DNA of 64,000 nt from Eledone cirrhosa. Lineage: Eukaryota. Position 1 is the stretch's first letter; the number at the start of each line of letters is the position of its first letter. Location: the NCBI GenBank assembly GCA_964016885.1, contig OZ024741.1, positions 334,118,001-334,182,000 of the forward strand. The letters are read 5' to 3'. This document shows positions 7,244 through 50,123 of the stretch, piece after piece. The position numbers and the translations under genes are program-made. The notes beneath the pieces were generated by a model. It ran no database searches. It was not told the DNA's origin and worked only from the letters and a program-made list of their open reading frames with translations.

Positions 7244-7245
<2 letters not shown>

Positions 7246-7274
<29 letters not shown>

Positions 7275-8299: not shown

Positions 8300-8710
8300 T
8301 ATGTATATATATATATATATGTATATATATATGTGTATATATATATGTATATATATATATGTATATATATATGTGTATATATATATGTATATATATATAT
8401 ATGTGTATATATATATATGTATATATAAATGTATGTATATATGTATATATATATGTATATATGTATATATATATGTAAATATGTATATATATATATATAT
8501 ATATGTATATACATATATATGTATATATTATATATATATATGTATATACATATATATGTATATATATATATATATGTATATACATATATATGTATATATA
8601 TATATATGTATATATATGTATATACATATATATGTATATATATATATATGTATATATATATGTATATACATATATATGTATATATATATATATGTATATA
8701 TATATGTATC
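7246..8710. repeat. Degenerate (TA)n/(TATG) microsatellite
   Basis: Direct reading. Confidence 0.95.
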
Positions 8711-12899: not shown

Positions 12900-12951
12900 T
12901 ATATATATGTATATATATATATATATGTTTATATATATATATATATATGTT

Positions 12952-12982
<31 letters not shown>

Positions 12983-12999
12983 GTTTATGTATATGTATA

Positions 13000-13081
<82 letters not shown>

Positions 13082-13431
13082 TATATATATATATAAATAT
13101 ATATATATATGTATATTAAGACAGGGGGGAAGAAAAAATGGCTTCACTTGTGCATTCAACAAATTTATTTTCTTCACAAAATCCAAAATGAATTTTTTTC
13201 CGGATTAGAAAATTTTTTTTTTTCTTTTTTCTTAAAATTATTTTATAAATTAAGTTAGGTCTTAGGAGTTCTTGGTTAACGTAGGAGGTATTGTTTCGTT
13301 TTTAGAACGACCTTTCACGCTGAGGTGCGCTTGTATGTATATATACGTGTATGTATATATATGTATATGTATATATATATATGTATATGTATATATATGT
13401 ATATGTATATATATATGTATATATATATATA

Positions 13432-13910
13432 TCATCATCATCATCATCACCGTTTTACGTCCGTTCTTCCACGCTAGCATGGGTTAGACGGGTTGTCCTG
13501 TTGTGGGCAGTGTCTGGTCGGCTGACCATGCCTTGCTCATACAGGAACTGATCTGGCTTGATTTCTACAGCTGGATGCCCTTCCTAACACCAACCTCATT
13601 TACAGTGAGTGCTGGGTGCTTTTTCGTGGCGCCTACACGTCCACTCTACAGTGCGGGCTGGGTGCTTTTTTGCCGTGGCACCTCCACGACCACCTTGCGG
13701 TGTGGGGGGGGGGGGCATATTGTTTATATGCTTCAGCATGTACCCATGGGAGGTCGGGTACCCTGTATTACTGTGTGACGCCAGAAGTCACGGTCGTGTG
13801 TCATTGACTTTGAGAGGTGTAGTTGGGTAAGGTCGGCTTTTATCACCTCATCCCAAGTCATCTTGGGTCTCCCCACTCCGCGGTTTCCATCAACTTCTAG
13901 TGGTCTGCAC
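13432..13910 (-). mobile_element. Short 3' fragment of a related RTE subfamily
   Basis: (CAT)n tail, GGATGCCCTTCCTAACACCAACC 3' UTR motif, near identity to 38087-38515. Confidence 0.88.
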
Positions 13911-14708: not shown

Positions 14709-16710
14709 ACTTTGAATAACTTTGAAATGTTTTGGCCAGTATTGGCCCAGGCCATGTCTAACTTAATAGCACCACCTGGCGAAGTCTTTCAATTCAGGAT
14801 TTGGGCACCATGGCCCATTCGAGAAGAGAATTACTGTTTGCGGAGACATATCCGGGTGTGGGTGGTTTGTCCGGGATTACTTGGAGGAATTTGTCCAAAG
14901 ACTTCTTGAATTTTGTGTGGTCATTTTCTGTTTTGACGTGTCCTGGTGTGATGTTGAAGAGAGCAGGGCCGATTGAGGTGAAATAATTGTGCCGTATTTT
15001 TGTTATGAGTTGCGATTTAGATTTTTGAATGGGACGGATAGCACGGGGCCCAAGCCTTGGGTGTATCTTGAAGGCGATGCCAACATCATTTGGGCAGTGA
15101 TGATGGAACATTTTCCACATCATGCAGATAATATAACGCTCACGGCGACGTTGGAGTGAGTAAAGTTTCAGGTTTTCTAATCGACCCCAGTAGTCAAGGT
15201 CTGACATGCCATCTATCTTTTTCGTGATTGCCCTTTGAGGAGCTTCAAGTTTCATGATACTTTGTTTCGTGTGGGGAGACCACAGTGGACAACAGTATTC
15301 AAGGTGTGGTCGGGCAAAAGTAGAGAAGAGAAGGATAATGGTGCGGGAATCTTTCGACTGGAAGGTTCTGAGGATCCAGGAACACATTCTGCGGGCCATG
15401 TCAACTTTGCTGCTTATATGCGTGGTCCAGCTTATGTTGCTGTCCACGGTTACTCCCAAGTCTCTGATGTTGTTAGATGCCACGAGAGTTTCCCCGGAGG
15501 GAAGGGAGTACGGGAGTTTCAGAGCATCCTCTTTTCCAAAGTGGATCAGTTCGAATTTGTCTTCGTTCAGTAACATGTTGTTCTTTTCTGCCCATTGGGT
15601 AACAGCCAGTAGGTCTGACTGAAGGCTTATCCGGTCATCCACGCCATTGATGACCTTTTGGAGCTTGGAATCATCAGCGAAAATTTTAATGTTGCTGTGT
15701 TTGATGATGTCAGTGATGTCATTAATATAGATGATGAAGAGAAGTGGGCCCAACACAGTGCCTTGTGGGACCCCACTACTGACTTTGGCTGGGCTTGATT
15801 TGACTCCCTCAACTACAACATGTTGGGTTCTGTTTGACAGGAAGCTCTTGATCCACTGCAGCAGCTTTCCAGTGACACCAATATTGGACAGCTTTCTCAG
15901 TAGAATGTTATGATCAACCCTGTCAAAGGCCTTGCTGAAATCAAGGTAGATAACATCAGTGTTGGAACCCTCTCCCAAGGCTCTCAAAATGTCATCAAAG
16001 TGATGCAGTAGCTGCGTCAGGCAATCCCTTCCATTACGGAATCCATGCTGGTTGGAGTTCAGCATATTGTTACTCTCAAGGAAGTGGGTCATTCGCGATC
16101 TCACCACTCACTCAAATACCTTAATGATATGAGAGGTGAGTGAGATTGGACGGTAATTCACGGCAAGGGATTTGTTTCCCTTTTTGAAAACTGGGACAAC
16201 AGACTGGGATAGAAGGTTTTCTGGCACATATCCAGCATCCAGTGAGTTCCGCCACAGATTGGCAAGAGGAGATGCAAGTTGGTGTTGACACGCCTTCAAG
16301 ACACAAGCAGGGAACCTATCGGGACCTACTGCTGAATTATGCTTGATTTCCTTTATTGCCGCCAAGACATCAGGGGCGCCAAACGTTATGTCCGATAAGG
16401 TGTAATGGGGAGTAACATCGCCGATACAGCCCAGATCGGCCATATCAGGATTGCTGAAAACAGAGCAGTATTGTTTCTGCAGTATCTCACCCATGGTTTT
16501 AGCATTGTCTTGAAGAGTGCCATTTTCATCAATTAGAGGGCCAACAGTAGAGCCAGTGATTTTGTGTTTTTTTGCAAATGAAAAGAACACTTTGGGATTG
16601 AGTTTGATCTTCTCAATGGCCCAGGCCTCTTCAGCTCTTCTCTGATTGTTGATGAGGGACATTATGTTGTTTTGGAGGTTATGTTTTTTAATCTCTAGTG
16701 ATGAAATGGC
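14709..16710 (-). mobile_element. 5'-truncated CR1-like LINE; RT interrupted by one stop codon (16108-16110)
   Basis: [52 protein letters not shown]; ORFs 16108-16662 and 14794-16107 are in frame and separated by TGA; tail repeat TTCAAAGTTA x2. Confidence 0.9.
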
Positions 16711-17620: not shown

Positions 17621-17820
17621 NNNNNNNNNNNNNNNNNNNNNNNNNNNNNNNNNNNNNNNNNNNNNNNNNNNNNNNNNNNNNNNNNNNNNNNNNNNNNNNN
17701 NNNNNNNNNNNNNNNNNNNNNNNNNNNNNNNNNNNNNNNNNNNNNNNNNNNNNNNNNNNNNNNNNNNNNNNNNNNNNNNNNNNNNNNNNNNNNNNNNNNN
17801 NNNNNNNNNNNNNNNNNNNN
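17621..17820. other. Assembly gap (200 N)
   Basis: Run of N. Confidence 1.
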
Positions 17821-19260
17821 ATTCATCGATATCATTTACGTATTTGAGATTTTCATTCAATTTATGAAACGGTTTAATCAAACCAGAGTTTAAATTGAGT
17901 GTGACATCCAGGAAGTTAACTACTTTAAGGTTGTATTCATATGTTATAGTTAGTCCTATTTCGAGTAGTAGTTTTCTTATATCTTTGCGTAGTTTTTCTA
18001 GTTTTTGGTTATTAAGGTTTTTAGCTAGGAGGAGAACATCGTCGCGGTATATTCCGCCGTGGAGATTGCTGAATTTTTCCTGGAGTCTAAAGGCGATAAA
18101 TAACCCCACAATATCAGTTATTTCCGCCGAATCGTTAGAGCCCATTGTTATGTCAAAGTTAGAGGGTCTATCTTTACGTACCCAATAACTGTTCTCAAAT
18201 TTGACTATAGTTTTCCTAGCTTCTAATATAATCTTAATTTCATCGTTTGTAAGGTCGGAGTTATCCTTAGCAAACTTAATGGCTCTATTCAAAGTTTCAG
18301 GTGATATCGATGAGTAATATTCATCGATATCAAACTGGATAAACTTAGATTTATTCTTATTGCTAATGCTATTAAACCATCTTATTGCTTCTTGGGTCTT
18401 CCCCCAGAGTTTAATGTTAACCTTAGCCTTAATTTGGGGGATGATTCTATCTAAGATATATTTGCTTATTTTACCTATATCTGATTTAGAGGGGCAGATT
18501 AATCTAATTTTAGGGTCATTATCAAAGTTTACCTTGTGGTCCTTAAGATTGAAAGTGGGTACCGCCGGTAAGAGTGGTCCTGTCCTATCTTCGATTCCGA
18601 GATTTTTCACTATTTCGCATGCCTCATCATTGATGTGCTTAAGGGTTACTTCACTCGTTTTTCTATATTTTTTATGTAATTCTTTTCGAATGAAGTTGTT
18701 GTATGTAGTGCAATCCATAGTGTACAGGTTTGATGTTTTGTCCGCTTTTACTACAATTCCTTTGGTGTTTTTAAGGTCGTCCAGTAGTTTTTTTATATCT
18801 TTCTGTAATTTGCTGTTGGTGTTGCGTCCTTTGAATTTAATTTTAAGGATTAAGTTCATAAGGTCCTGCTCAAATGCATCTAATAGTGGGTTGGTGGGTG
18901 GGTTTTTACAAGTCCTAAAACCGAATTTTTTGTTTACACCACTTTCTAATGTTGAGTTCATACGGCTTCTATCATAGTGGAGCGTTTTCCACCTGACACG
19001 TCGAATGAATTCATTAGTTTTTTTAATCATGCTCAATAAATATTCCTTTCTACCTTGGGTTGGTATGTTTTTGAGTGACATATCCAGGTAGTGTTTTTCC
19101 AGATATGCTGATGAGAATAGGTACAAATATGCGATAATGAATGTGTCTAAAAACGTCCATAAGTATGTATATATATGTGAAAATGTATATAAATAAGTAA
19201 ATATATATATATGTTTGATGTGTATAGTTAGATGTAAGTGTATTCATGTATTAAAGTGCT

Positions 19261-20256: not shown

Positions 20257-22578
20257 ATGGAAAAACACTACCTGGATATGTCACTCAAAAACATACCAAC
20301 CCAAGGTAGAAAGGAATATTTATTGAGCATGATTAAAAAAACTAATGAATTCATTCGACGTGTCAGGTGGAAAACGCTCCACTATGATAGAAGCCGTATG
20401 AACTCAACATTAGAAAGTGGTGTAAACAAAAAATTCGGTTTTAGGACTTGTAAAAACCCACCCACCAACCCACTATTAGATGCATTTGAGCAGGACCTTA
20501 TGAACTTAATCCTTAAAATTAAATTCAAAGGACGCAACACCAACAGCAAATTACAGAAAGATATAAAAAAACTACTGGACGACCTTAAAAACACCAAAGG
20601 AATTGTAGTAAAAGCGGACAAAACATCAAACCTGTACACTATGGATTGCACTACATACAACAACTTCATTCGAAAAGAATTACATAAAAAATATAGAAAA
20701 ACGAGTGAAGTAACCCTTAAGCACATCAATGATGAGGCATGCGAAATAGTGAAAAATCTCGGAATCGAAGATAGGACAGGACCACTCTTACCGGCGGTAC
20801 CCACTTTCAATCTTAAGGACCACAAGGTAAACTTTGATAATGACCCTAAAATTAGATTAATCTGCCCCTCTAAATCAGATATAGGTAAAATAAGCAAATA
20901 TATCTTAGATAGAATCATCCCCCAAATTAAGGCTAAGGTTAACATTAAACTCTGGGGGAAGACCCAAGAAGCAATAAGATGGTTTAATAGCATTAGCAAT
21001 AAGAATAAATCTAAGTTTATCCAGTTTGATATCGATGAATATTACTCATCGATATCACCTGAAACTTTGAATAGAGCCATTAAGTTTGCTAAGGATAACT
21101 CCGACCTTACAAACGATGAAATTAAGATTATATTAGAAGCTAGGAAAACTATAGTCAAATTTGAGAACAGTTATTGGGTACGTAAAGATAGACCCTCTAA
21201 CTTTGACATAACAATGGGCTCTAACGATTCGGCGGAAATAACTGATATTGTGGGGTTATTTATCGCCTTTAGACTCCAGGAAAAATTCAGCAATCTCCAC
21301 GGCGGAATATACCGCGACGATGTTCTCCTCCTAGCTAAAAACCTTAATAACCAAAAACTAGAAAAACTACGCAAAGATATAAGAAAACTACTACTCGAAA
21401 TAGGACTAACTATAACATATGAATACAACCTTAAAGTAGTTAACTTCCTGGATGTCACACTCAATTTAAACTCTGGTTTGATTAAACCGTTTCATAAATT
21501 GAATGAAAATCTCAAATACGTAAATGTTGGGTCTAACCACCCCATCTCTATAATTAAATCTATCCCTAAAAATATTTCCCTTAGAATCTCGGGTCTATCT
21601 TCTAACATACAAGTATTTAAGGAACACGCCGAGTACTACGATAACGCCCTTAGTAAAGCAGGCTACCTCAACAAAATAGAGTACATAGATGGGAACAATC
21701 AAAACACCCAAAATAAATCCCACATAGGTAGATATAATAACACAACACCAAACCACACTTACTACCATAGTATGCACACCAGTAAACCAACAAACAAAAC
21801 TAATAGAAAGCGATGCAAAGAGTACTTATGGTATAACCCCGAATACAATAGCTCCATTAGTACAAATTTACCAGTACTCTTCTTTAAAATAATTAAAAGA
21901 CATTTTCCCACATCACACAAATACCACAAAATCCTAAACCCTACCACTATAAGACTGTCATACTCTACAGCGTTAAACCTTGAACAACACATAAAAAAGA
22001 TCAATACTAGAAGGTTAAACGAAAACACTAAGAACTTAAGTACAAAGAACCCCAAAAAAACAGTAGACAATACACTACAGAACATAAATAAACCACACCT
22101 AAGTTCGTCCGCAATACTACTCCAGAGAAAACCCAACGTACACAACTGTAACTGCACCTATCCTGACAACTGCCCCCTCGGCAATAACTGCCTGGAAAAA
22201 AATATTATTTATAAGTGTACCATTAAATCCGGAGGCAACGAGTGGTATTACGTGGGATCAACGGCAACATCGTTTAAATCTCGATTGTATAGGCATTCTT
22301 ACTCAATAAAACACCAGAGCCAAAGAAATGTAACAACTTTAGCAGAGAAAGCTTGGACGCTCAGGGATAGCAATCAAAAGTTTACCCTAAAATGGGAAAA
22401 ATTAGCTAAAACCCAAAGCTTTTCCAGGAGCCAAAATTTCTGCAAATTGTGTAATCTTGAGATTTATTACATAATCACACACAAGAAGAAACTGCTGAAT
22501 AACAGAATTGAACGAACATTATTCTGCCGTCACAGAACTAAAACCCTTTTTTCCCACTACAAGCCGAATATTACATAA
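20257..22578 (+). CDS. Penelope-type reverse transcriptase plus C-terminal GIY-YIG endonuclease (773 aa, uninterrupted)
   Basis: KADKT, LKDHK, FDIDEYYSSI, ITMGS, YRDD, FLDVTL, SNHP; CNC..CPL..C, IIY..YVGST..FKSRLYRH, CKLC..E, LN.R.E..CRH. Confidence 0.95.
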   Translation: MEKHYLDMSLKNIPTQGRKEYLLSMIKKTNEFIRRVRWKTLHYDRSRMNSTLESGVNKKFGFRTCKNPPTNPLLDAFEQDLMNLILKIKFKGRNTNSKLQKDIKKLLDDLKNTKGIVVKADKTSNLYTMDCTTYNNFIRKELHKKYRKTSEVTLKHINDEACEIVKNLGIEDRTGPLLPAVPTFNLKDHKVNFDNDPKIRLICPSKSDIGKISKYILDRIIPQIKAKVNIKLWGKTQEAIRWFNSISNKNKSKFIQFDIDEYYSSISPETLNRAIKFAKDNSDLTNDEIKIILEARKTIVKFENSYWVRKDRPSNFDITMGSNDSAEITDIVGLFIAFRLQEKFSNLHGGIYRDDVLLLAKNLNNQKLEKLRKDIRKLLLEIGLTITYEYNLKVVNFLDVTLNLNSGLIKPFHKLNENLKYVNVGSNHPISIIKSIPKNISLRISGLSSNIQVFKEHAEYYDNALSKAGYLNKIEYIDGNNQNTQNKSHIGRYNNTTPNHTYYHSMHTSKPTNKTNRKRCKEYLWYNPEYNSSISTNLPVLFFKIIKRHFPTSHKYHKILNPTTIRLSYSTALNLEQHIKKINTRRLNENTKNLSTKNPKKTVDNTLQNINKPHLSSSAILLQRKPNVHNCNCTYPDNCPLGNNCLEKNIIYKCTIKSGGNEWYYVGSTATSFKSRLYRHSYSIKHQSQRNVTTLAEKAWTLRDSNQKFTLKWEKLAKTQSFSRSQNFCKLCNLEIYYIITHKKKLLNNRIERTLFCRHRTKTLFSHYKPNIT

Positions 22579-26167: not shown

Positions 26168-26172
<5 letters not shown>

Positions 26173-27929
26173 GAAGAGAGAAGAAACATTTAGATATAAT
26201 TAGTAATAAAATGTATCATACCTAAACTGCTCCTAAATTCCTCGACTACGTAGTTTCGTGGCATAAACAAAAACAATATATCAAAGATATAGAGTCCTTG
26301 CGAGGTCTGCCAACTTATCAAGAGGATACCTCATTTTACTAGTCTCAAGAACGCGTCTACACGACGTGAGAAAGAATCCCAAAAGGCGGAGGGGGAGATA
26401 GTCACGCGATATAACGGTCGAGAAACAGAGCTAAGCCTCCTATAACCACGAAGAAAATACCACGGAGGCGGAGGGGGTATTCATATCGAGGCCGCAGAAG
26501 AGGTGGTGAAGAAGGCGAAAAGTATGAGTAATGGAAGCTTTCCAGTTGTCCCCACACTTCAAAGATTGCTCGACCAGAGGGAGTTATTAACAATATATTT
26601 AGAAACACACAGATACATGCGGACACACACATATATACATGAATGCATCCGCACCCAACTGTGAGTTAAGGGTGCCAACTTCACCGATGTTGCTCAATGA
26701 ATGACCGGGACAGACCAATTCAGTTGAACTAGACTGAACCAGTATCAGAGTTAAAAATACATTATGAAGAGAGAAGAAACATTTAGATATAATTAGTAAT
26801 AAAATGTATCATACCTAAACTGCTCCTAAATTCCTCGACTACGTAGTTTCGTGGCATAAACAAAAACAATATATCAAAGATATAGAGTCCTTGCGAGGTC
26901 TGCCAACTTATCAAGAGGATACCTCATTTTACTAGTCTCAAGAACGCGTCTACACGACGTGAGAAAGAATCCCAAAAGGCGGAGGGGGAGATAGTCACGC
27001 GATATAACGGTCGAGAAACAGAGCTAAGCCTCCTATAACCACGAAGAAAATACCACGGAGGCGGAGGGGGTATTCATATCGAGGCCGCAGAAGAGGTGGT
27101 GAAGAAGGCGAAAAGTATGAGTAATGGAAGCTTTCCAGTTGTCCCCACACTTCAAAGATTGCTCGACCAGAGGGAGTTATTAACAATATATTTAGAAACA
27201 CACAGATACATGCGGACACACACATATATACATGAATGCATCCGCACCCAACTGTGAGTTAAGGGTGCCAACTTCACCGATGTTGCTCAATGAATGACCG
27301 GGACAGACCAATTCAGTTGAACTAGACTGAACCAGTATCAGAGTTAAAAATACATTATGAAGAGAGAAGAAACATTTAGATATAATTAGTAATAAAATGT
27401 ATCATACCTAAACTGCTCCTAAATTCCTCGACTACGTAGTTTCGTGGCATAAACAAAAACAATATATCAAAGATATAGAGTCCTTGCGAGGTCTGCCAAC
27501 TTATCAAGAGGATACCTCATTTTACTAGTCTCAAGAACGCGTCTACACGACGTGAGAAAGAATCCCAAAAGGCGGAGGGGGAGATAGTCACGCGATATAA
27601 CGGTCGAGAAACAGAGCTAAGCCTCCTATAACCACGAAGAAAATACCACGGAGGCGGAGGGGGTATTCATATCGAGGCCGCAGAAGAGGTGGTGAAGAAG
27701 GCGAAAAGTATGAGTAATGGAAGCTTTCCAGTTGTCCCCACACTTCAAAGATTGCTCGACCAGAGGGAGTTATTAACAATATATTTAGAAACACACAGAT
27801 ACATGCGGACACACACATATATACATGAATGCATCCGCACCCAACTGTGAGTTAAGGGTGCCAACTTCACCGATGTTGCTCAATGAATGACCGGGACAGA
27901 CCAATTCAGTTGTATCTGTGTGTTTCTAA

Positions 27930-27936
<7 letters not shown>
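26168..27936 (-). mobile_element. Non-coding HHR module D: ~3 tandem 593-bp units plus a short inverted arm (~27912-27936)
   Basis: Identical ORF-track hits spaced 593 bp apart; the terminal GTATCTGTGTGTTTCTAAATATATT is an inverted internal segment. Confidence 0.9.
26239..26326 (-). ncRNA. Variant hammerhead (U3-A8 core, ~44-nt loop II); further copies at 26832-26919 and 27425-27512
   Basis: Reverse strand: TCCTC-TTGATAA-GTTGGCA(loop)TGCCAC-GAAA-CTACGTAG-TC/GAGGA; GUC site. Confidence 0.75.
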
Positions 27937-27970
<34 letters not shown>

Positions 27971-27977
27971 GTATATA

Positions 27978-28032
<55 letters not shown>

Positions 28033-28147
28033 GTATATATATATGTGTATATATATATATATGTATATATATGTATATATATGTATATATATATATATGT
28101 ATATATATGTATATATATGTATATATATATATATGTATATATGTATA

Positions 28148-28216
<69 letters not shown>

Positions 28217-28219
28217 GTG

Positions 28220-28268
<49 letters not shown>

Positions 28269-28292
28269 GTATATATATATGTATATATATGT

Positions 28293-29202
28293 ATATGGAT
28301 GTAAATATAATGTATTTTGCAATACACTTTATGCTTAATTAAAAGCATTTTGAAGACCGTAAGCTATTGTTTTAAAGTAGTGACAAATTCACTCACTTCG
28401 ATCTCAGCAAACAGGAGGAGATAAGCCGACATGACATGTTTCGCTTTTGTTGAAGCTTATCAAGGCCAACTACCCCGCCCGTCTGCTGAGATTAATGATG
28501 TTATATTCTTATAGAAATCTAGTAAATAATCAGGAGCTGATTATGCAGAGCGGTTGTTGGTCAGGCAGAAATTTACAATTCTAATTTTTAATTTCTGCCT
28601 GACCAACAACCGCTCTGCATAATCAGCTCCTGATTATTTACTAGATTTCTATAAGAATATAACATCATTAATCTCAGCAGACGGGCGGGGTAGTTGGCCT
28701 TGATAAGCTTCAACAAAAGCGAAACATGTCATGTCGGCTTATCTCCTCCTGTTTGCTGAGATCGAAGTGAGTGAATTTGTCACTACTTTAAAACAATAGC
28801 TTACGGTCTTCAAAATGCTTTTAATTAAGCATAAAGTGTATTGCAAAATACATTATATTTACATCCATATATATATTGCTATTTCAGAGCTACAATTCTA
28901 ATTTTTAATTTCTGCCTGACCAACAACCGCTCTGCATAATCAGCTCCTGATTATTTACTAGATTTCTATAAGCAGACGGGCGGGGTAGTTGGCCTTGATA
29001 AGCTTCAACAAAAGCGAAACATGTCATGTCGGCTTATCTCCTCCTGTTTGCTGAGATCGAAGTGAGTGAATTTGTCACTACTTTAAAACAATAGCTTACG
29101 GTCTTCAAAATGCTTTTAATTAAGCATAAAGTGTATTGCAAAATACATTATATTTACATCCATATATATATTGCTATTTCAGAGCTACAATTCTAATTTT
29201 TA
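28293..29202 (+). mobile_element. Non-coding HHR module E: inverted arm ~28293-28573 plus two tandem units (~317 and ~295 bp)
   Basis: ACAATTCTAATTTTTA recurs at ~28575, 28892 and 29187; the arm is the reverse complement of unit 1. Confidence 0.9.
28696..28739 (+). ncRNA. Variant hammerhead (U3-A8 core); copies at 28991-29034 (+) and 28424-28467 (-)
   Basis: GGCC-TTGATAA-GCTT(caacaa)AAGC-GAAA-CATGTCATG-TC/GGCT. Confidence 0.8.
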
Positions 29203-29387: not shown

Positions 29388-31201
29388 TAGAAATTGGAAT
29401 AAATGCTCTGAAATAGCGATATATATGTGAATATAGACATAGAATATTCGAAAATATTCTGTATGTTTATAATAAACATTTTGAAGACCTAATCGCTATA
29501 GAATAGAATACGTCACGTATTACAATTAGATTCTCGATTAAAAGCAAGGGAAGTAATCTACGCGTTTCATTCTCGTTAGAAATCATCAGGACTACATATC
29601 CAGTGCTTTTATCGAGAATGACACAGCTAGAGACTTATAGAATACTTAGCTGTGTACAGGAACTGGTTTGAAAGAGCGGTTTGCCGGTCCGGCAGAAATT
29701 AGAAATTGGAATAAATGCTCTGAAATAGCGATATATATGTGAATATAGACATAGAATATTCGAAAATATTCTGTATGTTTATAATAAACATTTTGAAGAC
29801 CTAATCGCTATAGAATAGAATACGTCACGTATTACAATTAGATTCTCGATAAAAAGCAAGGGAAGTAATCTACGCGTTTCATTCTCGTTAGAAATCATCA
29901 GGACTACATATCCAGTGCTTTTATCGAGAATGACACAGCTAGAGACTTATAGAATACTTAGCTGTGTACAGGAACTGGTTTGAAAGAGCGGTTGCCGGTC
30001 CGGCAGAAATTAGAAATTGGAATAAATGCTCTGAAATAGCGATATATATGTGAATATAGACATAGAATATTCGAAAATATTCTGTATGTTTATAATAAAC
30101 ATTTTGAAGACCTAATCGCTATAGAATAGAATACGTCACGTATTACAATTAGATTCTCGATAAAAGCAAGGGAAGTAATCTACGCGTTTCATTCTCGTTA
30201 GAAATCATCAGGACTACATATCCAGTGCTTTTATCGAGAATGACACAGCTAGAGACTTATAGAATACTTAGCTGTGTACAGGAACTGGTTTGAAAGAGCG
30301 GTTGCCGGTCCGGCAGAAATTAGAAATTGGAATAAATGCTCTGAAATAGCGATATATATGTGAATATAGACATAGAATATTCGAAAATATTCTGTATGTT
30401 TATAATAAACATTTTGAAGACCTAATCGCTATAGAATAGAATACGTCACGTATTACAATTAGATTCTCGAAAAGCAAGGGAAGTAATCTACGCGTTTCAT
30501 TCTCGTTAGAAATCATCAGGACTACATATCCAGTGCTTTTATCGAGAATGACACAGCTAGAGACTTATAGAATACTTAGCTGTGTACAGGAACTGGTTTG
30601 AAAGAGCGGTTGCCGGTCCGGCAGAAATTAGAAATTGGAATAAATGCTCTGAAATAGCGATATATATGTGAATATAGACATAGAATATTCGAAAATATTC
30701 TGTATGTTTATAATAAACATTTTGAAGACCTAATCGCTATAGAATAGAATACGTCACGTATTACAATTAGATTCTCGATAAAAGCAAGGGAAGTAATCTA
30801 CGCGTTTCATTCTCGTTAGAAATCATCAGGACTACAGTATGTTTATTATAAACATACAGAATATTTTCGAATATTCTATGTCTATATTCACATATATATC
30901 GCTATTTCAGAGCATTTATTCCAATTTCTAATTTCTGCCGGACCGGCAACCGCTCTTTCAAACCAGTTCCTGTACACAGCTAAGTATTCTATAAGTCTCT
31001 AGCTGTGTCATTCTCGATAAAAGCACTGGATATGTAGTCCTGATGATTTCTAACGAGAATGAAACGCGTAGATTACTTCCCTTGCTTTTATCGAGAATCT
31101 AATTGTAATACGTGACGTATTCTATTCTATAGCGATTAGGTCTTCAAAATGTTTATTATAAACATACAGAATATTTTCGAATATTCTATGTCTATATTCA
31201 T
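29388..31201 (-). mobile_element. Non-coding HHR module F: ~4.7 tandem units of 308-312 bp plus inverted arm ~30839-31201
   Basis: HHR motif starts at 29553, 29865, 30175, 30483 and 30793 on the minus strand; inverted copy to the right. Confidence 0.92.
31034..31076 (+). ncRNA. Minimal type I hammerhead (module F, inverted arm); five minus-strand copies in the tandem array
   Basis: GTAGTC-CTGATGA-TTTCT(aacg)AGAAT-GAAA-CGCG-TA/GATTAC; palindromic ACGCGT. Confidence 0.88.
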
Positions 31202-33092
<1,891 letters not shown>

Positions 33093-33601: not shown

Positions 33602-36600
33602 ATATCTATCTATCTAAGGCGGGTAAAATTTCCGAGATCCATATACAGGTTCTCTCCAGCGGTCTCTGTCCCTGATTATCGCTGCCATGTCCTGCATCTC
33701 CAACAGACCAGTGTCTGTCCTTAGGGCATCAACGTACGTTAATCTTGGTCTTCCTCTTCTAGTGTGTCCATGTAGGGGCTCCCAAAGGAGTACTGAGTGC
33801 AATGTCAACTCTGGATGTCGGTGAGCATGTCCAGCTAACCTCAGTCTCCTCTGTGTCACTTTTGATCTGACTTTTGGGATGCTCCCATACAGCTCTGAGT
33901 TTTTCGTCCTCAATGTATACTGATTAATGTTCAGAGCCATCCTCAGCATTCTCGTGTAGCACCCATCCACCATCTGAGTGAGTTTCTTGGTCAGTGTCCA
34001 AGTCTCAGACCCATATAGCAGCACAGACTCCACTACAGCAATGAAGAGGCGGATTTTCAGGTCTCTACGAAGGTCCGACTTCCACACCGATCTCAAGCTG
34101 TGGCACGCCGCCCAGGCCTTGCTCTTCCTCTCAACCACATCATCCTCCGTATTCCCAATCTTTGCTCCCAAATACAGGAAGTCCTCAACCAATTCCAGCG
34201 GCTTCCCGCCTACATTAGTGATCCCCTCTGGCTTCTCAACATTCTCTACCAGATATTTTGTTTTAGTCTCATTCATTCTCAGCCCCACACTCATCGACAC
34301 AGTCTCAACCTCCCGCATCAAATCCTCTGCCTCCCTCACTGTATTTGTCACCAAAACTATGTCGTCGGCAAATTCAGCATCCGATACCTTTTTCGCCCTA
34401 ACTCTCCTGCTCTGAGCCGGTGCTACAGTAAAGCCAGAGTCCTGGTGTTTCTCCAGTGCAAGGCGCATACAATAGTCCACTACAATGACAAAAAGGTAGG
34501 GAGCCAATGTATCTCCCTCGAGCACTCCAGCCAATATCTCAAAGAACTCTGTCATCCCATCAGGTGTAATGACTTGGGCTTTGGTGTTGGTGTAGAGCAG
34601 TGATATCAGGTCCACTATCTTCTTGGGGATTCCATAAGCCTGTAAGATCTTCATCAGGCAGTAACGGTCCACAGAATCAAAGACCTTCCTAAAGTCAATG
34701 AAAACCATGATCGCAGGAAGGCACTTTGCTCTAGCTCCCTCTAATATCCTCCTCAGCATCAGGATGTGACTGGTGGTTGATCTACCCTCTCTGAAGCCGT
34801 TCTGGTTGTCCCTGAGCTTCTTCTCCATCTCAGGCTGGATCCTGTTAAGAATCATCCTGTTGAGGGTCTTTGCCACAAGTGACGTCAGTGAGATCCCCCG
34901 GTAGTTGTTGGTGTTAGAGAGATCTCCCTTCTTTGGCACCGGGACGATGTTACTGATCCTCCACTGATTCGGGGCAACTCCTTTCTCCAGTGCCCCGTTA
35001 CAGAACCCCAGGATGATATCATCAAAATCACACCTCCTAATCACCTCCGATGCCACTCCATCTTCTCCATGAACCTTGCCCTCCTTGATCCTCTTCTTGG
35101 CTCTCTGAAGCTCCTCTCTGGTGAAGGGCTCTGTCTCAACATCCAGTTCCTCAAACAGCCGCCTGATCTCCCCAGTGCTCTGGGCTGTGGAGGGTGGCTC
35201 TCCTAGTAGGGCCCTAAAATGGTCTAGCCATTTCCTCTTCCTATCCTCGGGCCCCGTTCCCTGGATCTGACTCGAACACCTTCTCTTCCTCCCTGTGATC
35301 TCGTTGATGATCATCCAGCTCTCCTTACATCCAGATATGTCAACCGCTCTCTCCACACTTCTGATCTTCTCTATCAGTGCCTCCTCTCTGACCTCAGTGT
35401 AAGCGGTACAGAGCTCTTCCCTCATCACCTCCACAGTCTCCATCCTCTCCTCCGTGGGATCAGCATAGAATTGGTCCCTGGCAGCTTTCAGGTGTTCTCT
35501 GGCTGCACACACTTTTGGGTTTGCAGAGCTGACGTGCTTCCCTTTGTTCTTTTTCCTCGGCACCAGTGTTTCACTTGCTTCCGCCACTGCATTGGTGAAG
35601 TGCCCGTACCTCCCCGTCACACTCTCCTCAGTCCATCCAATCTCTCTCTCCTCTGACTCTCCACACAGAGCACTAAACCTGTTTCTCACTTCCACTGTGA
35701 ACCTCTCCTGTAGCTTATCATATTCCTTGAAAGCTCCCCAGTCATAGATTGTTCTCCGGGGCTGAGCCTTGCTCTTTCTTAAGCTCACGCGTACCTCACT
35801 CATAACAAGCCTGTGGTCACTACCCAGTGTACTGAAATAGCTGTATGGTTCCGTGTTCAGAACACTATTCCGCCACTTTTTCCTCACCAGAATGAAATCA
35901 ATCTGGGACTTGGACAGGTGCACATCTGAGATGTAGGTCCACATCTTCCCCAGATTCTTCCTAAACCTTAGGTTGGTCGCCATCAAGTTCGCCTCCAGCA
36001 GGGTGTCTCTCAGTAGTCTTCCATTTCGGTTGGTGTTGTTATAGAAGTACCAGCAAGGATCTTCACTGCCCTCCTTACTCAGATGTGCATTGAAGTCCCC
36101 AAAAACAAGCAGGATATTGTGTGCCTGAGTGGTGTTGACAGCTCTACACACCTCCTCATGGAACTCTTCCGCATTCACATCACTGTCCTCCTCGGTTGGA
36201 CTATAGGCTGAGATGACTGTCAGTCTTGGGTTTCCATTGAAGGTCACCCTCAACACTCGCGGGGAGATAGGCATTATTTCCCTCACCAACAGATTGGTTT
36301 TTGCACTGAACACAAAACCCACTCCCCCTACTGCAGCATTTGTTGTGTTCTTCACTGCCGATGTAGTGATGAGCTGGCTCTTCCTCCCGATCATCACACT
36401 CCTCACGGGCTCATCGTGTAGAATCCTGTGTTCTTGGATCGCAAGTATCTGTATACCACTCTCCTCGAACAGATGTCCCAACTCCTCTCTCTTCTCCAGC
36501 GTCCGAATAGTCCTCACATTCAAAGTGCCCATTTTGATGGCTCTTCTGCAGGACAAAACTGCATTCTTTATATTTGTCTCAGAGACAGCTGATCCATCAT

Positions 36601-36915
36601 CCACTGGCCCTCTCTGTGGCTCTAAGCCAGCAGAGTCATAACGACCAGGCTGCTCCTTGACAGTGTAATTAGGGGCTTTAACCCTAGTGCTGTTAGATTG
36701 ACTCTCCATATTTCTTTTCAATGGCTGACAATACCCTACCGGCGCCACTCGAATAAGGTAGTTATTTAACCCATAAATGGAACCCTAACAGGTACTACCA
36801 CCCCGGGCCAGGGCAGACCTGGGAGTCATTACAACTAAGGGGTAACTCCACATTACCCACATCTCCTGAACTCCCGAACTGGAGCCTTGCCACTGGATGT
36901 AGTTTAATGTCATAT
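33602..36915 (-). mobile_element. Apparently full-length RTE-clade LINE with short 5' leader and (TAGA)n tail
   Basis: Single APE-RT ORF, GC-richer 5' leader at 36749-36915, TAGA repeats right after the stop. Confidence 0.9.
33614..36748 (-). CDS. RTE LINE APE endonuclease-reverse transcriptase (1044 aa, uninterrupted)
   Basis: GTLNVRT, IQEHR, AYSPT, GDFNA, SQIDFIL, SDH; NYRGISL, QNGFR, GDTLAPYLF, FADD, LLYGSETW, RRLRLAGH, RGRP. Confidence 0.95.
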   Translation of the reverse strand: MAPVGYCQPLKRNMESQSNSTRVKAPNYTVKEQPGRYDSAGLEPQRGPVDDGSAVSETNIKNAVLSCRRAIKMGTLNVRTIRTLEKREELGHLFEESGIQILAIQEHRILHDEPVRSVMIGRKSQLITTSAVKNTTNAAVGGVGFVFSAKTNLLVREIMPISPRVLRVTFNGNPRLTVISAYSPTEEDSDVNAEEFHEEVCRAVNTTQAHNILLVFGDFNAHLSKEGSEDPCWYFYNNTNRNGRLLRDTLLEANLMATNLRFRKNLGKMWTYISDVHLSKSQIDFILVRKKWRNSVLNTEPYSYFSTLGSDHRLVMSEVRVSLRKSKAQPRRTIYDWGAFKEYDKLQERFTVEVRNRFSALCGESEEREIGWTEESVTGRYGHFTNAVAEASETLVPRKKNKGKHVSSANPKVCAAREHLKAARDQFYADPTEERMETVEVMREELCTAYTEVREEALIEKIRSVERAVDISGCKESWMIINEITGRKRRCSSQIQGTGPEDRKRKWLDHFRALLGEPPSTAQSTGEIRRLFEELDVETEPFTREELQRAKKRIKEGKVHGEDGVASEVIRRCDFDDIILGFCNGALEKGVAPNQWRISNIVPVPKKGDLSNTNNYRGISLTSLVAKTLNRMILNRIQPEMEKKLRDNQNGFREGRSTTSHILMLRRILEGARAKCLPAIMVFIDFRKVFDSVDRYCLMKILQAYGIPKKIVDLISLLYTNTKAQVITPDGMTEFFEILAGVLEGDTLAPYLFVIVVDYCMRLALEKHQDSGFTVAPAQSRRVRAKKVSDAEFADDIVLVTNTVREAEDLMREVETVSMSVGLRMNETKTKYLVENVEKPEGITNVGGKPLELVEDFLYLGAKIGNTEDDVVERKSKAWAACHSLRSVWKSDLRRDLKIRLFIAVVESVLLYGSETWTLTKKLTQMVDGCYTRMLRMALNINQYTLRTKNSELYGSIPKVRSKVTQRRLRLAGHAHRHPELTLHSVLLWEPLHGHTRRGRPRLTYVDALRTDTGLLEMQDMAAIIRDRDRWREPVYGSRKFYPP

Positions 36916-38089: not shown

Positions 38090-40357
38090 TCATCATCATC
38101 ACCGTTTTACATCAGTTCTTCCACGCTAGCATGGGTTAGACGGGTTGTCCTGTTGTGGGCAGTGTCTGGTCGGCTGACCAGGCCTTGCTCATACAGGAAC
38201 CTCATTTACAGTGAGTGCTGGGTGCTTTTTTGTGGCGCCTACACGTCCACTTTACCGTGTGGGCTGGGTGCTTTTTTGCCATGGCATCTCCACGACCACC
38301 TTGCAGTGGGAGGGTGTGGGGGTATATTGTCTATATGCTCCAGCTTGTACCCATGGGAGGTCGGGTACTCTGTATTACTGCATCACGCCAGAGGTCACGA
38401 TCGTGTGTCATCGCCTTGGAGAGGTGTAATTGGGTAAGGTCAGCTTTTATCACCTCATCCCAGGTCATCTTGGGTCTCCCACTCCGCGGTTTCCATCGAC
38501 TTCTAGTGCTCTGCACCTTTTTATGCAGCTTTCATCCTTCATACGCATCACATGTCCATACCAATACAACCCCCTCTCCTGCACACAGCATTTGATTCCT
38601 CTTATGTTCAGTCTCTCTCTCAATTCATTTATGCTTTGTCGGTCACGTATATTACTATTACACATCCATCGGAGCATGCAGGCTTCGTTTCTCTCTAATC
38701 TATGTAAGTCTTCCACCTTCAGCGCCCAGGTCTCACTACCATGTAACATTGCTGTTCGTATACACGCATCATACAGTCTGCCTTTCATTTTGAGGGAGAA
38801 GCCTTTTGCAGCTAGCAGTGGAAGTAGTTCCCTGAACTTCTTCCATTCCGTTCTTACCCTAGTTATTGTACTTTCTGAACACCCACCTCCGCTGCTAATT
38901 CGGTCACCTAGGTAGCAGAAGCTGTCTACTGTCTCTACAGAGCCCTCACAGAGATTGGTGGTACTTGTCTCCTGTGGCTGTTTGCTGCTTGCTGTCCCAG
39001 TACAGCTGCTGCATGTGAAACCTACATTCTTAATTAAGCTTCCTGAGATATCGCTACATCTCTTGTGTACGTACCCATTGTTTGCATTTGGGGCAGAGAA
39101 TGGAGTTCCTACCTACACCTTTCCTACATACTGAGCAAGGCCATTTCCCTGAGGGGATCTGGGTTCTGTTTTCTCGTTACTTACGAGGATCTTATTCTTT
39201 GTCATGTTGACTTTGAGACCCTTTTTTTCTAGTCCCTGCTTCCAAGTTTGGAATTTCTTCTCTAGTTCTACCATAGATTCAGCTATAAGTGCGAGGTCAT
39301 CAGCATACAGGAGTTCCCATGGGCATCCAGTCTTAAACTCCTCTGTTATTGCCTGCAGGACTATGATGAACAGGAGAGGGCTAAGAACAGATCCCTGGTG
39401 GACACCAACCTGTACGCTAAATTCCTCGCTATACTCATTGCTAATCCTAACTTTGCTGACTGCTCCCCTATACATGGCTTGTACAGCTTTCACAAGCCAT
39501 TCATCTACTCCTAGTTTTCTAAGAGCCCACCAGATTACAGCACGGGGAACTCTGTCAAAGGCTTTCTCGAGATCGACGAATGCCAGGTAGAGTGTCTTAC
39601 TTTTAGCTAGGTACTTTTCCTGTAACTGCCTCACAATGAAGAGGGCATCAGTGGTGTCTCCTTCTGGTACAAACCCAAATTGCATCTCATCTAGTTTCAC
39701 CCGGTCCCTAATCAACTGTGCTATAACTATTTCTGTTACTTTCATGACCTGTTCCCTCAGCTTTATACCTCTATAGTTTCCTCTATCGAGTGCATCACCT
39801 TTACCTTTGTAGCAGTTGACAATGATGCTACTGCACCAATCTTTTGGTACGACACCTTCTAGTATTACCTGGTTAACAATACGTGTGGTTATAGTGTGAC
39901 CTACAGACCCAGATGCCTTCAGCATCTCAGCAGCTATACCCGATGGACCGGTTGCCTTTCCCATCTTCATATCTTTGATTGCCTTATTTAGTACGCTGCT
40001 GCTGACTTGTAATGCTGGCCTCTCTATAGGGTCTACTTGGGGTAGGGTCTCTTCTTCCCATGCATTCTCCTCATTTAGTAATCTATCATAATGACTCTTC
40101 CATGCATCTTTCTTCTCAGCACTTGTGAGGGCAAGCTCACCTTTATCATTCCGGATACACTTCTCTCCAATGACATCTCAATTCTCTCTGACACACTGCC
40201 TCTCAATCTTGAACACCTCCTGTTTCTGGTCCTCACGTTGCAAAACATGCTTGAATTTTCTATCCTCTGCTTCCCTCCTAGCTAAGTATACTTGTCGCCT
40301 AGCTTCCCTCCTGGTCTCTATGTAATGTACACTGCTCCCCCCGTCCTTCCATTCTTT
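38087..40357 (-). mobile_element. 5'-truncated, frameshifted RTE LINE (PHD-like family) including the RT core
   Basis: NYRGIKL, QFGF, DLEKAFDRV, GVHQGSVLSPLLF, YADD, HGSETW; (CAT)n tail at the left end. Confidence 0.9.
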
Positions 40358-43996: not shown

Positions 43997-45900
43997 TAAT
44001 TGTTTCTACTTTAGGCACAAGACCAGTAATTACCCAGTGCATTACTGGTACTTTATTTTATCGACCCCGTAAGGATGAAAGGCAAAGTCAACCTCGGCGG
44101 GATTTGAACTCAGATCGTAAAGGGACGTCTCTTTATGATCTGAGTTCAAATCCCGCCGAGGTTGACTATGCTGGAAACCATGGCGTCCGACCCTCTACCG
44201 AAACTGCCAATCCACCGCCTTATATATATATAATATTGGGTATTAGGATTGGTGTTCTGAAATAGCGATGTATACATGAATGTATGTATAGTATATTTGG
44301 CAATATACCGTATGTTTAATTAAAAACATTTTGAAGACCATACGCTATCGGTTTTAAAGTAGTCACTATGTCACTTCTTTTCGGTGAAAGGAGGGAGAGA
44401 AGCTAACAGTCTGTTACATCCTGTTTGGCAATCATCAGAGTCACACACTTCCGCTGAAAATTATAGAAGCTGGATTCTTATAGAATTCCAGTAATAATCA
44501 GGAGCTGATTAGCGTGAAACAGACTGTTAGCTTCTCTCCCTTCTTTCGCCAAAAAAGAAGTGACATATTCACTACTTTAAAACTGATAGCCGGTACTTTA
44601 TTTTATTGATGCCGGAAGGATAAAAGTCGAAATTGATCTCAGTGGGATTTGAACTCAGAATGTAAAGATCACAAACAAATACTACAAAAAATAATATATC
44701 TGATACTCTAATGATTATGATCTACTGCATTATGATGGGATGAAATAATGTTTTCTAATTTAGGCACAAGTCCAACAATTTTGGGGGAGGTGATTGTTTA
44801 TTATATTTACCCCAGTTTATTACTGGTGCTCTATTTATCAATCCTGTAAGGATGAAAGGCAAAGCTAACGTAAAGAATGCAAAGAACCATAGCTCTGTAC
44901 TACAAAACGTTGCCTGATGCTTTACTAATACTGCCATGAAATAATATTATCACGATAATGTACAGCAGTGGATTGGCAGTATCGGGAGAGCATCGAACAA
45001 TATGCTTTCTGGCTTATAGTTACGGCCCTTTATTTTCTGAGTTCAAATCCCACTGAGATTATCTTTGCCTGTCATCCTTACGGGGATCGATAATATAACG
45101 CATTAGTAATGCACTGGGTGCAATTTAATTGACTTTCTTCTTCCCCAAATGTTTGCCTTGTACCTAAATCAGAAACCAGTATTCATATGACAAAGTTTTC
45201 CTCTGCCATATCTTATGATATGATAAACTTGAGATTATATATAGTAACAGAGAACCATGACCTGATGAAGGTACAATAATAATTGAATACTGGAATAAGA
45301 TAACTATGAAAAAAAACATGTCTTTATTCATCTAATAATAATCATTAAATTTAGTGAAAGGAATAAGGAAAAAATTTCCATCTTTCTGAGTATAGTAATT
45401 TCCTTTCTACATTTTTCTGTCACCTCACAGCATTCATTTGTTATTGAATTTAAAAGTTATATTCACTTTTACTTTTTCTGTTTTCTGAAATACATGATAC
45501 GAACACAAAAGGAACAGTGATTCTTTTTTTTTGTTTTCTAGAAATTCCAGGAACTAACATAAATCAGACATGGTTTATTTAAAAGCTGTCGGGCATGAAG
45601 TTTTGTATTTAAAATCACTTTAAAAATTAATGAAAATCCGATGATGATGATGAACTAAATGAAGACAACAATAAAAACGAAGAAAGATCAAGAAAAACAG
45701 GATAATAATTGTTTCTACTTTTGGCACAAGGTCAGCAATTACCCAGTACATTACTGGTACTTTATTTTATCGACCCCGTAAGGATGAAAGACAAAATTAA
45801 CCTCAGCGGGATTTGTACTCAGAATGGCAAGGGCCGTAACTGTATGCATCAAAACATGGCATCCGACACTCTACCAATACTACCAATTCACCGCCTATAA
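43997..45900. mobile_element. Cluster of degraded tRNA-derived SINEs with a Deu/Nin-like domain (~43997-44222 -, 44590-44720 -, 44750-44935 -, 44962-45175 +, 45705-45898 -)
   Basis: Recurrent GAGTTCAAATCCC..GAG...TTTGCCTTTCATCCTTACGGGGTCGATAAAATAAAGTACCAG motif on either strand. Confidence 0.75.
44237..44590 (-). mobile_element. Old, diverged member of the E/F module family with degenerate HHR (~44401-44443) and inverted arm (~44514-44590)
   Basis: TCTGAAATAGCGAT, TTTTGAAGACC, TTTTAAAGTAG, TAATCAGGAGCTGATTA shared with E/F; reverse strand CTGATGA...G(T/A)AA-CAGACTG-TT. Confidence 0.72.
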
Positions 45901-48347: not shown

Positions 48348-48390
48348 ATAAATATATATGTATATATATATATATATAAATATATATGTA

Positions 48391-50123
48391 CATTATGAAG
48401 AGAGAAGAAACATTTAGATATAATTAGTAATAAAATGTATCATACCTAAACTGTTCCTAAATTCCTCGACTACGTAGTTTCGTGGCATAAACAAAAACAA
48501 TATATCAAAGATATAGAGTCCTTGCGAGGTCTGCCGACTTATCAAGAGGATACCTCATTTTACTAGTCTCAAGAACGCGTCTACACGACGTGAGAAAGAA
48601 TCCCAAAAGGCGGAGGGGGAGATAGTCACGCGATATAACGGTCGAGAAACAGAGCTAAGCCTCTTATAACCACGAAGAAAATACCACGGAGGCGGAAGGG
48701 GTATTCATATCGAGGCCGTAGAAGAGGTAGTGAAGAAGGCGAGAAGTATGAGTAATGGAAGCTTTCCAGTTGTCCCCACACCTCAAAGATTGCTCGACCA
48801 GAGGGAGTTATTAATATATTTAGAAACACACAGATACATGCGGACGCACACATATATACCCTTAACTCACAGTTGGGTGCGGATGCATTCATGTATATAT
48901 GTGTGCGTCCGCATGTATCTGTGTGTTTCTAAATATATTAATAACTCCCTCTGGTCGAGCAATCTTTGAGGTGTGGGGACAACTGGAAAGCTTCCATTAC
49001 TCATACTTCTCGCCTTCTTCACTACCTCTTCTACGGCCTCGATATGAATACCCCCTCCGCCTCCGTGGTATTTTCTTCGTGGTTATAAGAGGCTTAGCTC
49101 TGTTTCTCGACCGTTATATCGCGTGACTATCTCCCCCTCCGCCTTTTGGGATTCTTTCTCACGTCGTGTAGACGCGTTCTTGAGACTAGTAAAATGAGGT
49201 ATCCTCTTGATAAGTCGGCAGACCTCGCAAGGACTCTATATCTTTGATATATTGTTTTTGTTTATGCCACGAAACTACGTCGTCGAGGAATTTAGGAACA
49301 GTTTAGGTATGATACATTTTATTACTAATTATATCTAAATGTTTCTTCTCTCTTCATAATGTATTTTTAACTCTGATACTGGTTCAGTCTAGTTCAAACT
49401 GAATTGGTCTGTCCCAGTCATTCATTGAGCAACATCGGTGAAGTTGGCACCCTTAACTCACAGTTGGGTGCGGATGCGTTCATGTATATATGTGTGCGTC
49501 CGCATGTATCTGTGTGTTTCTAAATATATTAATAACTCCCTCTGGTCGAGCAATCTTTGAGGTGTGGGGACAACTGGAAAGCTTCCATTACTCATACTTC
49601 TCGCCTTCTTCACTACCTCTTCTACGGCCTCGATATGAATACCCCCTCCGCCTCCGTGGTATTTTCTTCGTGGTTATAAGAGGCTTAGCTCTGTTTCTCG
49701 ACCGTTATATCGCGTGACTATCTCCCCCTCCGCCTTTTGGGATTCTTTCTCACGTCGTGTAGACGCGTTCTTGAGACTAGTAAAATGAGGTATCCTCTTG
49801 ATAAGTCGGCAGACCTCGCAAGGACTCTATATCTTTGATATATTGTTTTTGTTTATGCCACGAAACTACGTCGTCGAGGAATTTAGGAACAGTTTAGGTA
49901 TGATACATTTTATTACTAATTATATCTAAATGTTTCTTCTCTCTTCATAATGTATTTTTAACTCTGATACTGGTTCAGTCTAGTTCAAACTGAATTGGTC
50001 TGTCCCAGTCATTCATTGAGCAACATCGGTGAAGTTGGCACCCTTAACTCACAGTTGGGTGCGGATGCGTTCATGTATATATGTGTGCGTCCGCATGTAT
50101 CTGTGTGTTTCTAAATATATTAA
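48391..50123 (+). mobile_element. Module D second locus (D2): inverted arm 48391-48859 plus ~2.1 tandem 591-bp units
   Basis: Close match to 26168-27936; HHRs at 48463-48550 (-), 49202-49289 (+) and 49793-49880 (+). Confidence 0.9.
49202..49289 (+). ncRNA. Variant hammerhead (U3-A8, 44-nt loop II), module D2
   Basis: TCCTC-TTGATAA-GTCGGCA(loop)TGCCAC-GAAA-CTACGTCG-TC/GAGGA. Confidence 0.72.

Follow-up and report, generated by a model that had tools for sequence, protein, structure and literature searches.

The 64,000-nucleotide stretch of the Eledone cirrhosa assembly analysed here (the window) is AT-rich and animal-type, with repeats that are parted by long (TA)n tracts, and it also contains LINE-type RT and endonuclease ORFs. 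The repeat modules at issue, D and its second insertion D2, E, and the relatives of E that we call F and G, are listed with their hammerhead motifs in Table 1. The same window holds three Penelope-type elements, which we take to be Penelope-like from the RT-then-GIY-YIG layout typical of the class. The second of these has 295 homologues, mostly unnamed, the third gives a sub-threshold Pfam GIY-YIG match (E = 0.0012), and hammerheads occur in the terminal repeats of the elements.

Table 1. Repeat modules, hammerhead motifs and Penelope-type elements, with positions counted from the first letter of the window.
Feature	Position	Strand	Description
Penelope-type element 1	3123-6725		frameshifted
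Penelope-type element 2	20257-22578		intact, 773 aa
Penelope-type element 3	60200-61153	-	
Module D	26170..27912	-	non-coding 593-nt unit (42% GC) repeated 2.9 times head to tail, 3' end at (TA)n
D, inverted stub	27911..27936	+	26 nt, reaches as far as the second fixed end (unit position 423) and is followed by (TA)n
D hammerhead, copy 1	26239..26326	-	U3 26321, A8 26316, C17 26244; helix III palindrome ACUACGUAGU
D hammerhead, copy 2	26832..26919	-	U3 26914, A8 26909
D hammerhead, copy 3	27425..27512	-	
Module E, inverted copy	28287..28580	-	fixed end A within (TA)n; hammerhead 28424-28467 (-)
Module E, tandem units	28574..29202	+	two units, 317 and 295 nt, 35% GC; fixed end B lies 31 nt beyond end A
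E hammerhead, first tandem unit	28696..28739	+	U3 28700, A8 28705, C17 28735; helix I prolonged as an imperfect stem, ~28673-28761
E hammerhead, second tandem unit	28991..29034	+	
Module F	29388..31207		related to E; on the minus strand, 4.7 units of 310 nt in tandem, with inverted copy 30825-31207
F hammerheads	29388..31207		six, C3-G8, A17, U10.1-U11.1 mismatch
Module G	44233..44590	-	third member of the E/F group, older and decayed; core C3-G8, with GTAA for the GAAA box
Module D2	48389..50123		inverted copy 48389-48859 (-) plus tandem copies 48858-50123 (+)
D2 hammerheads			three, U3-A8; position 3 at 48545 (-), 49207 (+) and 49798 (+)

In each of D, D2, E and F a partial tandem lies next to an inverted copy, and both 3' ends enter (TA)n. 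The two fixed ends are 31 nt apart in E and 33 nt apart in F, at homologous positions; in D and D2, which have the same fixed ends, they are 171 nt apart in each (two insertions only), and in an autonomous element at 1439-7247 they are 57 nt apart. The footprint described for Penelope-like elements consists of partial tandems with an inverted copy next to them, a tail of 30-40 bp and a preference for microsatellites (Craig et al., 2021, PMC8557442); in vitro, the tail is as long as the interval that separates two internal RT starts (Frangieh et al., 2024, PMC11167929). The end spacing of D falls outside the published 30-40 nt.

The module units are non-coding, with longest ATG frames of 76 (D), 28 (E) and 30 aa, and the unit RNAs pair strongly with themselves (D, z = -5.9, 0 of 100 shuffles; E, z = -2.9, 1 of 200). 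D and E are both built of tandem non-coding units at less than 45% GC, each with a type I hammerhead: 2.9 units at 42% in D, and two units plus the inverted copy at 35% in E. Against the 150-450 bp quoted for retrozymes (Cervera and de la Peña, 2020, PMC7229834), the 295-317 nt units of E fall inside the range and the 593-nt unit of D above it. Within the window no ORF lies in or beside D or E, and comparison with the ends of the three autonomous elements gave no sequence link beyond low-complexity CA/TA matches. Judged by these sequence features, D and E would fit animal non-LTR retrozymes, likely copied by Penelope-type retrotransposons.

Hammerhead motifs and the 3-8 pair

A hammerhead scan of the window in which positions 3 and 8 were left free found the core TTGATAA (U3...A8) in nine of nine copies, six in D/D2 and three in E, as the sequence-only reading had described, and all nine have the cleavage site GUC. 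The copies of F read CTGATGA in six of six cases, with the cleavage site GUA. Set against the core C3UGANGA9...G12AAA with U16.1 and H17, D and E match at 11 of 13 letters, and the two mismatches are the compensatory U-A at 3 and 8. Three helices surround the core in both families, with the ends joined in helix I. Stems I-III had been described as intact throughout, which holds for seven of the nine copies; in the two + strand hammerheads of D2 an A-to-C change disrupts the helix III palindrome. That the two families are unrelated was borne out, in that D and E have no detectable homology to each other (blastn, word size 7, E < 0.05; nhmmer). Because the copies are 97-100% identical (D copies 100% to each other, D2 97.5% to D, and E copies 98-100%, a deletion in the second tandem unit aside), the nine U3-A8 copies count as two events.

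With 3 and 8 again unconstrained, a strict type I scan gave 22 matches in the window, 16 with C-G, six with U-A and none with any other combination. The chance expectation was a mean of 0.47 matches per shuffle (200 dinucleotide shuffles of the microsatellite-masked window), and only 32% of the chance matches had a Watson-Crick pair at 3-8. The U3-A8 hammerhead motifs are beyond chance. The strict scan overlooked all three copies of D2, the motifs of PLE1 and PLE3 and the copy in G, which is decayed; other scans found them. Counted by family, in a list of 11 that we compiled and in which the decayed G is included, nine hammerheads are C3-G8, two are U3-A8 and none is unpaired (Fisher p = 0.018). 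The coupling of 3 and 8 is real, though it is based on two events. What had been said of the ribozyme at the outset is borne out as well: positions 3 and 8 form a Watson-Crick pair in the active fold (PMC3884650), and U3-A8 is a known natural covariation (Perreault et al., 2011, PMC3088659; Cervera and de la Peña, 2014, PMC4209133).

In D, helix I has 5 bp, helix II has about 6 bp, with a single bulged base and the insertion of a long hairpin, and helix III is a perfect 10-nt palindrome. In E, a helix I of 4 bp continues into a long imperfect stem (z = -5.8, with 0 of 200 shuffles as stable), helix II has 3-4 bp, and helix III is an 11-nt near-palindrome with one central base. Both motifs are type I hammerheads with a self-complementary helix III, and they are predicted to adopt the fold as dimers. 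For D, the hammerhead is the minimum-energy state of the dimer, at -59.7 kcal/mol versus -46.2 for two monomers, and two-strand folding likewise gives the hammerhead dimer as the minimum-energy dimer of D2a and F; the hammerhead dimer of E lies 1.0 kcal/mol per strand above the minimum, and the broken-palindrome D2 copies lie 2.2 above. As a monomer, the hammerhead fold is above the minimum by 1.2 (D), 5.3 (E) and 6.7 (F) kcal/mol.

The swap itself has small predicted effects. In D, the U3 form abolishes a misfold that is predicted to amount to 1.3 kcal/mol per strand, and the dimer gap of E is 1.0 with U3-A8 and 0.0 with C3-G8; both effects are within model error, and as they are opposite in sign we rejected folding energy as the cause of the swap. 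When U3 is placed in the context of F, the dimer costs 1.1 kcal/mol per strand, which we read as pairing of U3 with A17, on the model of the C3-G17 trap described in PMC3884650. Both U3-A8 families of the window lack A17, an avoidance that is not significant (p = 0.49). A rule tying U3-A8 to C17 (two of two versus one of nine families, p = 0.055) was discarded, as U3-A8 families in the literature carry G17 and U17, and at most a putative 'not A17' remains of it.

There is no hammerhead match at the Rfam gathering level anywhere in the window. E resembles Hammerhead_HH9 weakly (31.1 bits, gathering 52; E-value 6.4e-5), and D and F have no Rfam hammerhead match up to E = 10. As the C3-G8 motifs also fall short, we attribute this to the models and not to the variant. 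Rfam microRNA matches over 28534-28629 were set aside as products of the inverted-repeat junction and (TA)n.

Divergence and variation among copies

E, F and G are homologous (E-G 71% over 271 nt, E-F 61% over 301 nt; the aligned span of G is 44256-44511), and they align across their length with the ribozymes at the corresponding place. We picked 15 helix I pairs from the predicted fold and compared them between E and F at equal core offsets: all 15 are kept, seven unchanged, five with two-sided and three with one-sided changes, and none is broken, an outcome reached in 14 of 500,000 random draws. Retention of all 15 pairs through five two-sided changes points to a fold under selection, and the fold is clearly conserved across the E-F divergence.

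The sequence-only reading had proposed selection for catalysis, possibly at a tuned lower rate. The coupling across families (9/2/0, as given above) and the covariation in helix I argue for selection on the ribozyme fold, but the tuned lower rate is not supported. It had further seen covariation at 3-8 between E and F; F does carry C3-G8 in all six copies, but the difference amounts to one double change and was overstated. Since F and G carry C3-G8 alike, the U3-A8 state of E is probably derived, although three taxa do not fix the root. A metagenome scan for relatives of E/F/G yielded a single locus (L001); it lacks a hammerhead and has no similarity outside the pattern, and it was put down to chance.

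The D and E families are young, and both are very high-copy, with 1,506 contigs for D and 1,202 for E in run X1, which is possibly from the same source as the window. Conservation of the motif relative to its flanks is not significant in either family: in D, 1 of 88 positions is variable inside the motif and 28 of 505 outside (p = 0.053), four of them (27205-27215) possibly deriving from other repeats, and in E, 0 of 27 inside and 19 of 269 outside (p = 0.15), a count that omits 28855 (1.05%). The contig tables give letters from 1% of depth, from about 31 bases inward of the contig end, unphased, and exclude relatives of less than 80% identity. Within that scope, no alternative letter at 1% of depth or more is listed at position 3 or 8 of D or E in the X1 contigs. 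The tally of core variants that had been suggested at the outset gives 0 of 11 families unpaired and no common single variant in the run contigs, though rare ones could escape it.

Changes listed inside the E motif are one in loop II and the helix III pair 28727A/28731T, and one X8 contig carries the two letters together, so that the pair is preserved. Pairing is also preserved by four of five further E helix I alleles; the fifth (28744, in X8 only) breaks it.

Words of D were found in 20 public runs under 17 organism labels; three of these (X1, X12 and X15), and in addition the raw run X22, were compared with D. In X12 and X15 contigs D has a depth of 2-13, versus 10^5 in X1, and the raw run X22 gave five reads on D, confined to a CA-rich patch; we read the X12, X15 and X22 signal as trace carry-over or a shared low-complexity motif rather than as horizontal transfer of D. 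For E, there were 0 contigs in X4, and X6 gave one contig, at a depth of 2.1, in which the core letters were not readable with certainty.

Origin and retention of the U3-A8 pair

The reading that we prefer, at odds of about three in four, is that D and E, as non-coding repeats, are likely copied by the proteins of Penelope-like retrotransposons, and that their units each carry a type I U3-A8 hammerhead with predicted slow, mainly dimeric self-cleavage. A tandem array would be transcribed by read-through, and neighbouring hammerheads would pair via the self-complementary helix III and cut after GUC, slowly and possibly with the assistance of a protein, by analogy with an anole Penelope element. 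This would free RNA of unit length, 593 nt in the case of D and about 300 nt in that of E, which may become circular. A Penelope RT/GIY-YIG protein provided in trans would nick AT-rich DNA, and reverse transcription from two internal sites would yield a tandem-plus-inverted insertion with uneven ends.

The swap most likely arose twice, each time in a source copy that went from C3-G8 to U3-A8 in two transitions, with U3-G8 as a tolerated wobble in between, and it would have been retained because the 3-8 pair needed for catalysis stays intact. Among 56 published PLE representatives, the U3-G8 wobble occurs in one, S. kowalevskii(1), and U3-A8 in two (PMC4209133). A mutational scan of position pairs in a type III hammerhead found the 3-8 pair rescued by G:C and by no other swap (PMC9901934), whereas covarying forms are active in vitro, as cited by Perreault et al. 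(PMC3088659); set against each other, these results suggest that U3-A8 is probably slower and context-dependent, and that activity of D and E is not guaranteed. We regard U3-A8 as a tolerated substitute rather than a demonstrated adaptation, and drift through the U3-G8 wobble fits as well as a tuned lower rate.

We think it unlikely that U3-A8 is an adaptive tuning, in which a slower or protein-licensed ribozyme would benefit non-autonomous elements, for example by leaving uncut multimers as RT template. Two independent origins in one 64-kb window would agree with this, as would the low activity that most 3-8 changes give (PMC9901934) and the anole element, whose dominant substrate is uncut RNA and whose cleavage is protein-assisted (PMC11167929). 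The swap is found in two of eight ORF-less modules and in none of three ORF-linked elements, but a split of this size carries no signal, and the autonomous PLE S. mansoni(4) is also U3-A8 (PMC4209133). The 1.3 kcal/mol misfold that the U3 form removes in D would count for tuning, yet the folding effect is reversed in E; and C3-G8 families such as F have been amplified as well.

Equally doubtful, in our judgement, is a recurrent selected brake, by which the RNA of Penelope parasites would stay uncut until copies pair or a helper protein binds, the swap being linked to the cleavage base. On this account A17 would trap U3, and hence E would have changed 3, 8 and 17 together relative to F. If it were true, E and F would form a natural matched pair for the role of the hammerhead in Penelope retrotransposition, and D would show that two RT starts can be 171 nt apart.

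It is improbable, too, that the ribozymes are dead or irrelevant, the double change having been fixed by chance in a source copy and the repeat moved for its RNA structure and RT starts. Such a history would suit an AT-rich genome in which both changes are transitions towards A/T, and it draws on there being two events only, on the lack of significant conservation within families and on the failure of anything but G:C to rescue 3-8 in the mutational scan. The decay in G and in two D2 copies would agree with it, and so would the anole Penelope element, in which ribozyme mutants had no effect on insertion in vitro, so that insertion there dispenses with cleavage (PMC11167929). Yet both families show the remaining 11 core letters and the GUC without a single deviation, unpaired combinations at 3-8 occur in none of the families (p = 0.018), and helices I and III vary by compensation.

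Least probable, if not by much, is that D and E, rather than being independent parasites, broke away from the pseudo-LTRs of autonomous Penelope-like elements that lie elsewhere in the genome and themselves have U3-A8 hammerheads: 5'-truncated PLE insertions look alike (PMC8557442) and U3-A8 is known in a PLE pLTR (PMC4209133), but D and E repeat head to tail at unit length with no ORF remnant, X1 and X12 contigs cross the unit-to-unit joint of D, one X1 contig joins the end of E to its start, and the E/F/G clan has diverged to 61-71% and yet remained at about 300 nt.

Comparison with known systems

D and E are new examples of a rare swap that had already been described from natural sequences (2011) and from the hammerheads of Penelope elements (2014), and they add two more families to the published U3-A8 list. 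What the sequence-only reading overlooked is the setting: dimer-type Penelope hammerheads in Penelope-footprinted non-coding repeats, where U3-A8 is already known. As young, adjacent and homologous elements that differ at the catalytic pair, E (U3-A8 with GUC) and F (C3-G8 with GUA) offer a ready pair for asking whether the cleavage rate matters in Penelope-driven copying. Searches fixed on CUGANGA overlook two of the 11 hammerhead families of the window.

The closest published case (Cervera and de la Peña, 2014, PMC4209133) is the set of about 1,300 matches with U3-A8 in the hammerheads of Schistosoma mansoni Penelope-like (Cercyon) elements, of which family Sm3 has the identical heptamer UUGAUAA. 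Like D and E, these are type I, with the same 3-8 swap, a palindromic helix III region, predicted action as dimers and a Penelope context. Unlike them, D and E have a long helix III palindrome (10-11 nt), E has an extended helix I and D a hairpin in helix II, and the motifs lie in ORF-less tandem units rather than in the pLTR of an ORF. In D and E, G10.1 directly follows A9 with no extra base between 9 and 10.1, as is also the case in two of the 56 published representatives. The dimer design is itself known for Penelope hammerheads (PMC4209133 and PMC6765202). U3-A8 occurs naturally in several hammerheads (Perreault et al., 2011, PMC3088659); the swap is the same as here, and the available text of that paper does not tie it to tandem animal repeats or to a dimer-type helix III.

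An origin from Penelope-like elements, or a dependence on them, has been put forward for retrozymes (Cervera and de la Peña, 2020, PMC7229834), and a recent preprint derives animal non-LTR retrozymes from Penelope pLTRs (Li et al., 2026, bioRxiv 10.64898/2026.07.22.740005). D and E are like non-LTR retrozymes in their non-coding tandem units, in the type I hammerhead in each unit and in a GC content below 45%. D, at 593 nt, exceeds the 150-450 bp quoted for retrozymes, and both modules are retrozyme-like candidates. Here the inverted copy, the tail and the targeting of (TA)n are evident, and a search of the available part of the Li et al. preprint found none of them.

Compared with the Penelope elements of Craig et al. 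(2021, PMC8557442) and Frangieh et al. (2024, PMC11167929), D differs in having ends 171 nt apart, and the modules differ in encoding no protein; non-autonomous derivatives are known there for Chlamys. The likeness lies in the footprint, with tandems, an inverted truncated copy, two fixed ends and AT-rich or microsatellite targets in both.

Hammerhead families and LINE-type sequences

Eleven hammerhead families are spread over positions 1439–63000 of the 64 kb (see table), and helix II carries long insertions in five of them (D, a family of non-coding tandem units, and those at 19941, 37433, 55348 and 57697). None of the 11 meets the Rfam gathering score. Among the LINE-type sequences, the RTE-like fragments have a (CAT)n or a (GAT)n tail at their end, and one contains a PHD finger.

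Coordinates of features in the window
Feature	Position	Strand	Remark
Hammerhead families, position 3	3005, 10604, 19941, 26914, 28700, 30211, 37433, 44438, 55348, 57697, 61899		
Penelope-type ORF	20257-22578	+	intact, 773 aa
Penelope-type element, truncated copy	17833-19101	-	inverted
Assembly gap	17621-17820		200 N; adjoins inverted Penelope copy
RTE-like LINE fragments	8429-9565, 12080-13910, 38102-39970		
Other LINE ORFs	14794-16662, 33614-36748, 52302-54410		

A candidate helper

The intact Penelope-type ORF lies between identical 479-nt repeats that carry a C3-G8 hammerhead, and has no Pfam match despite 295 homologues. We regard the element encoding it as a candidate active helper, that is, a source of protein acting in trans.

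Ends and arms of the D-family insertions

In D2, the second D-family insertion, the two copies at 49207 (+) and 49798 (+) share a change that disrupts the helix III palindrome, whereas this palindrome is intact in the insertion's own inverted copy. This suggests either that the tandem and inverted arms of D2 derive from distinct units or that the change preceded a duplication of one of the arms.

A 50-nt CA-rich patch of the D unit (27186–27236), adjoined by the second fixed end, is matched by many contigs and reads of other runs without the remainder of D. In the anole Penelope element, the study places the reverse transcription start inside a stem-loop rich in AC (PMC11167929).

Comparison with known systems

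Both D (26170/27936) and D2 (48389/50123) stop at the identical two unit positions, 171 nt apart, a spacing that in these two insertions much exceeds the 30–40 nt of a Penelope tail. In F, the C3-G8 relative of module E, helix II of the hammerheads (29553–31076) begins with a U10.1-U11.1 mismatch, a feature that Perreault et al. (PMC3088659) also describe and that has been described for an axolotl retrozyme as well.
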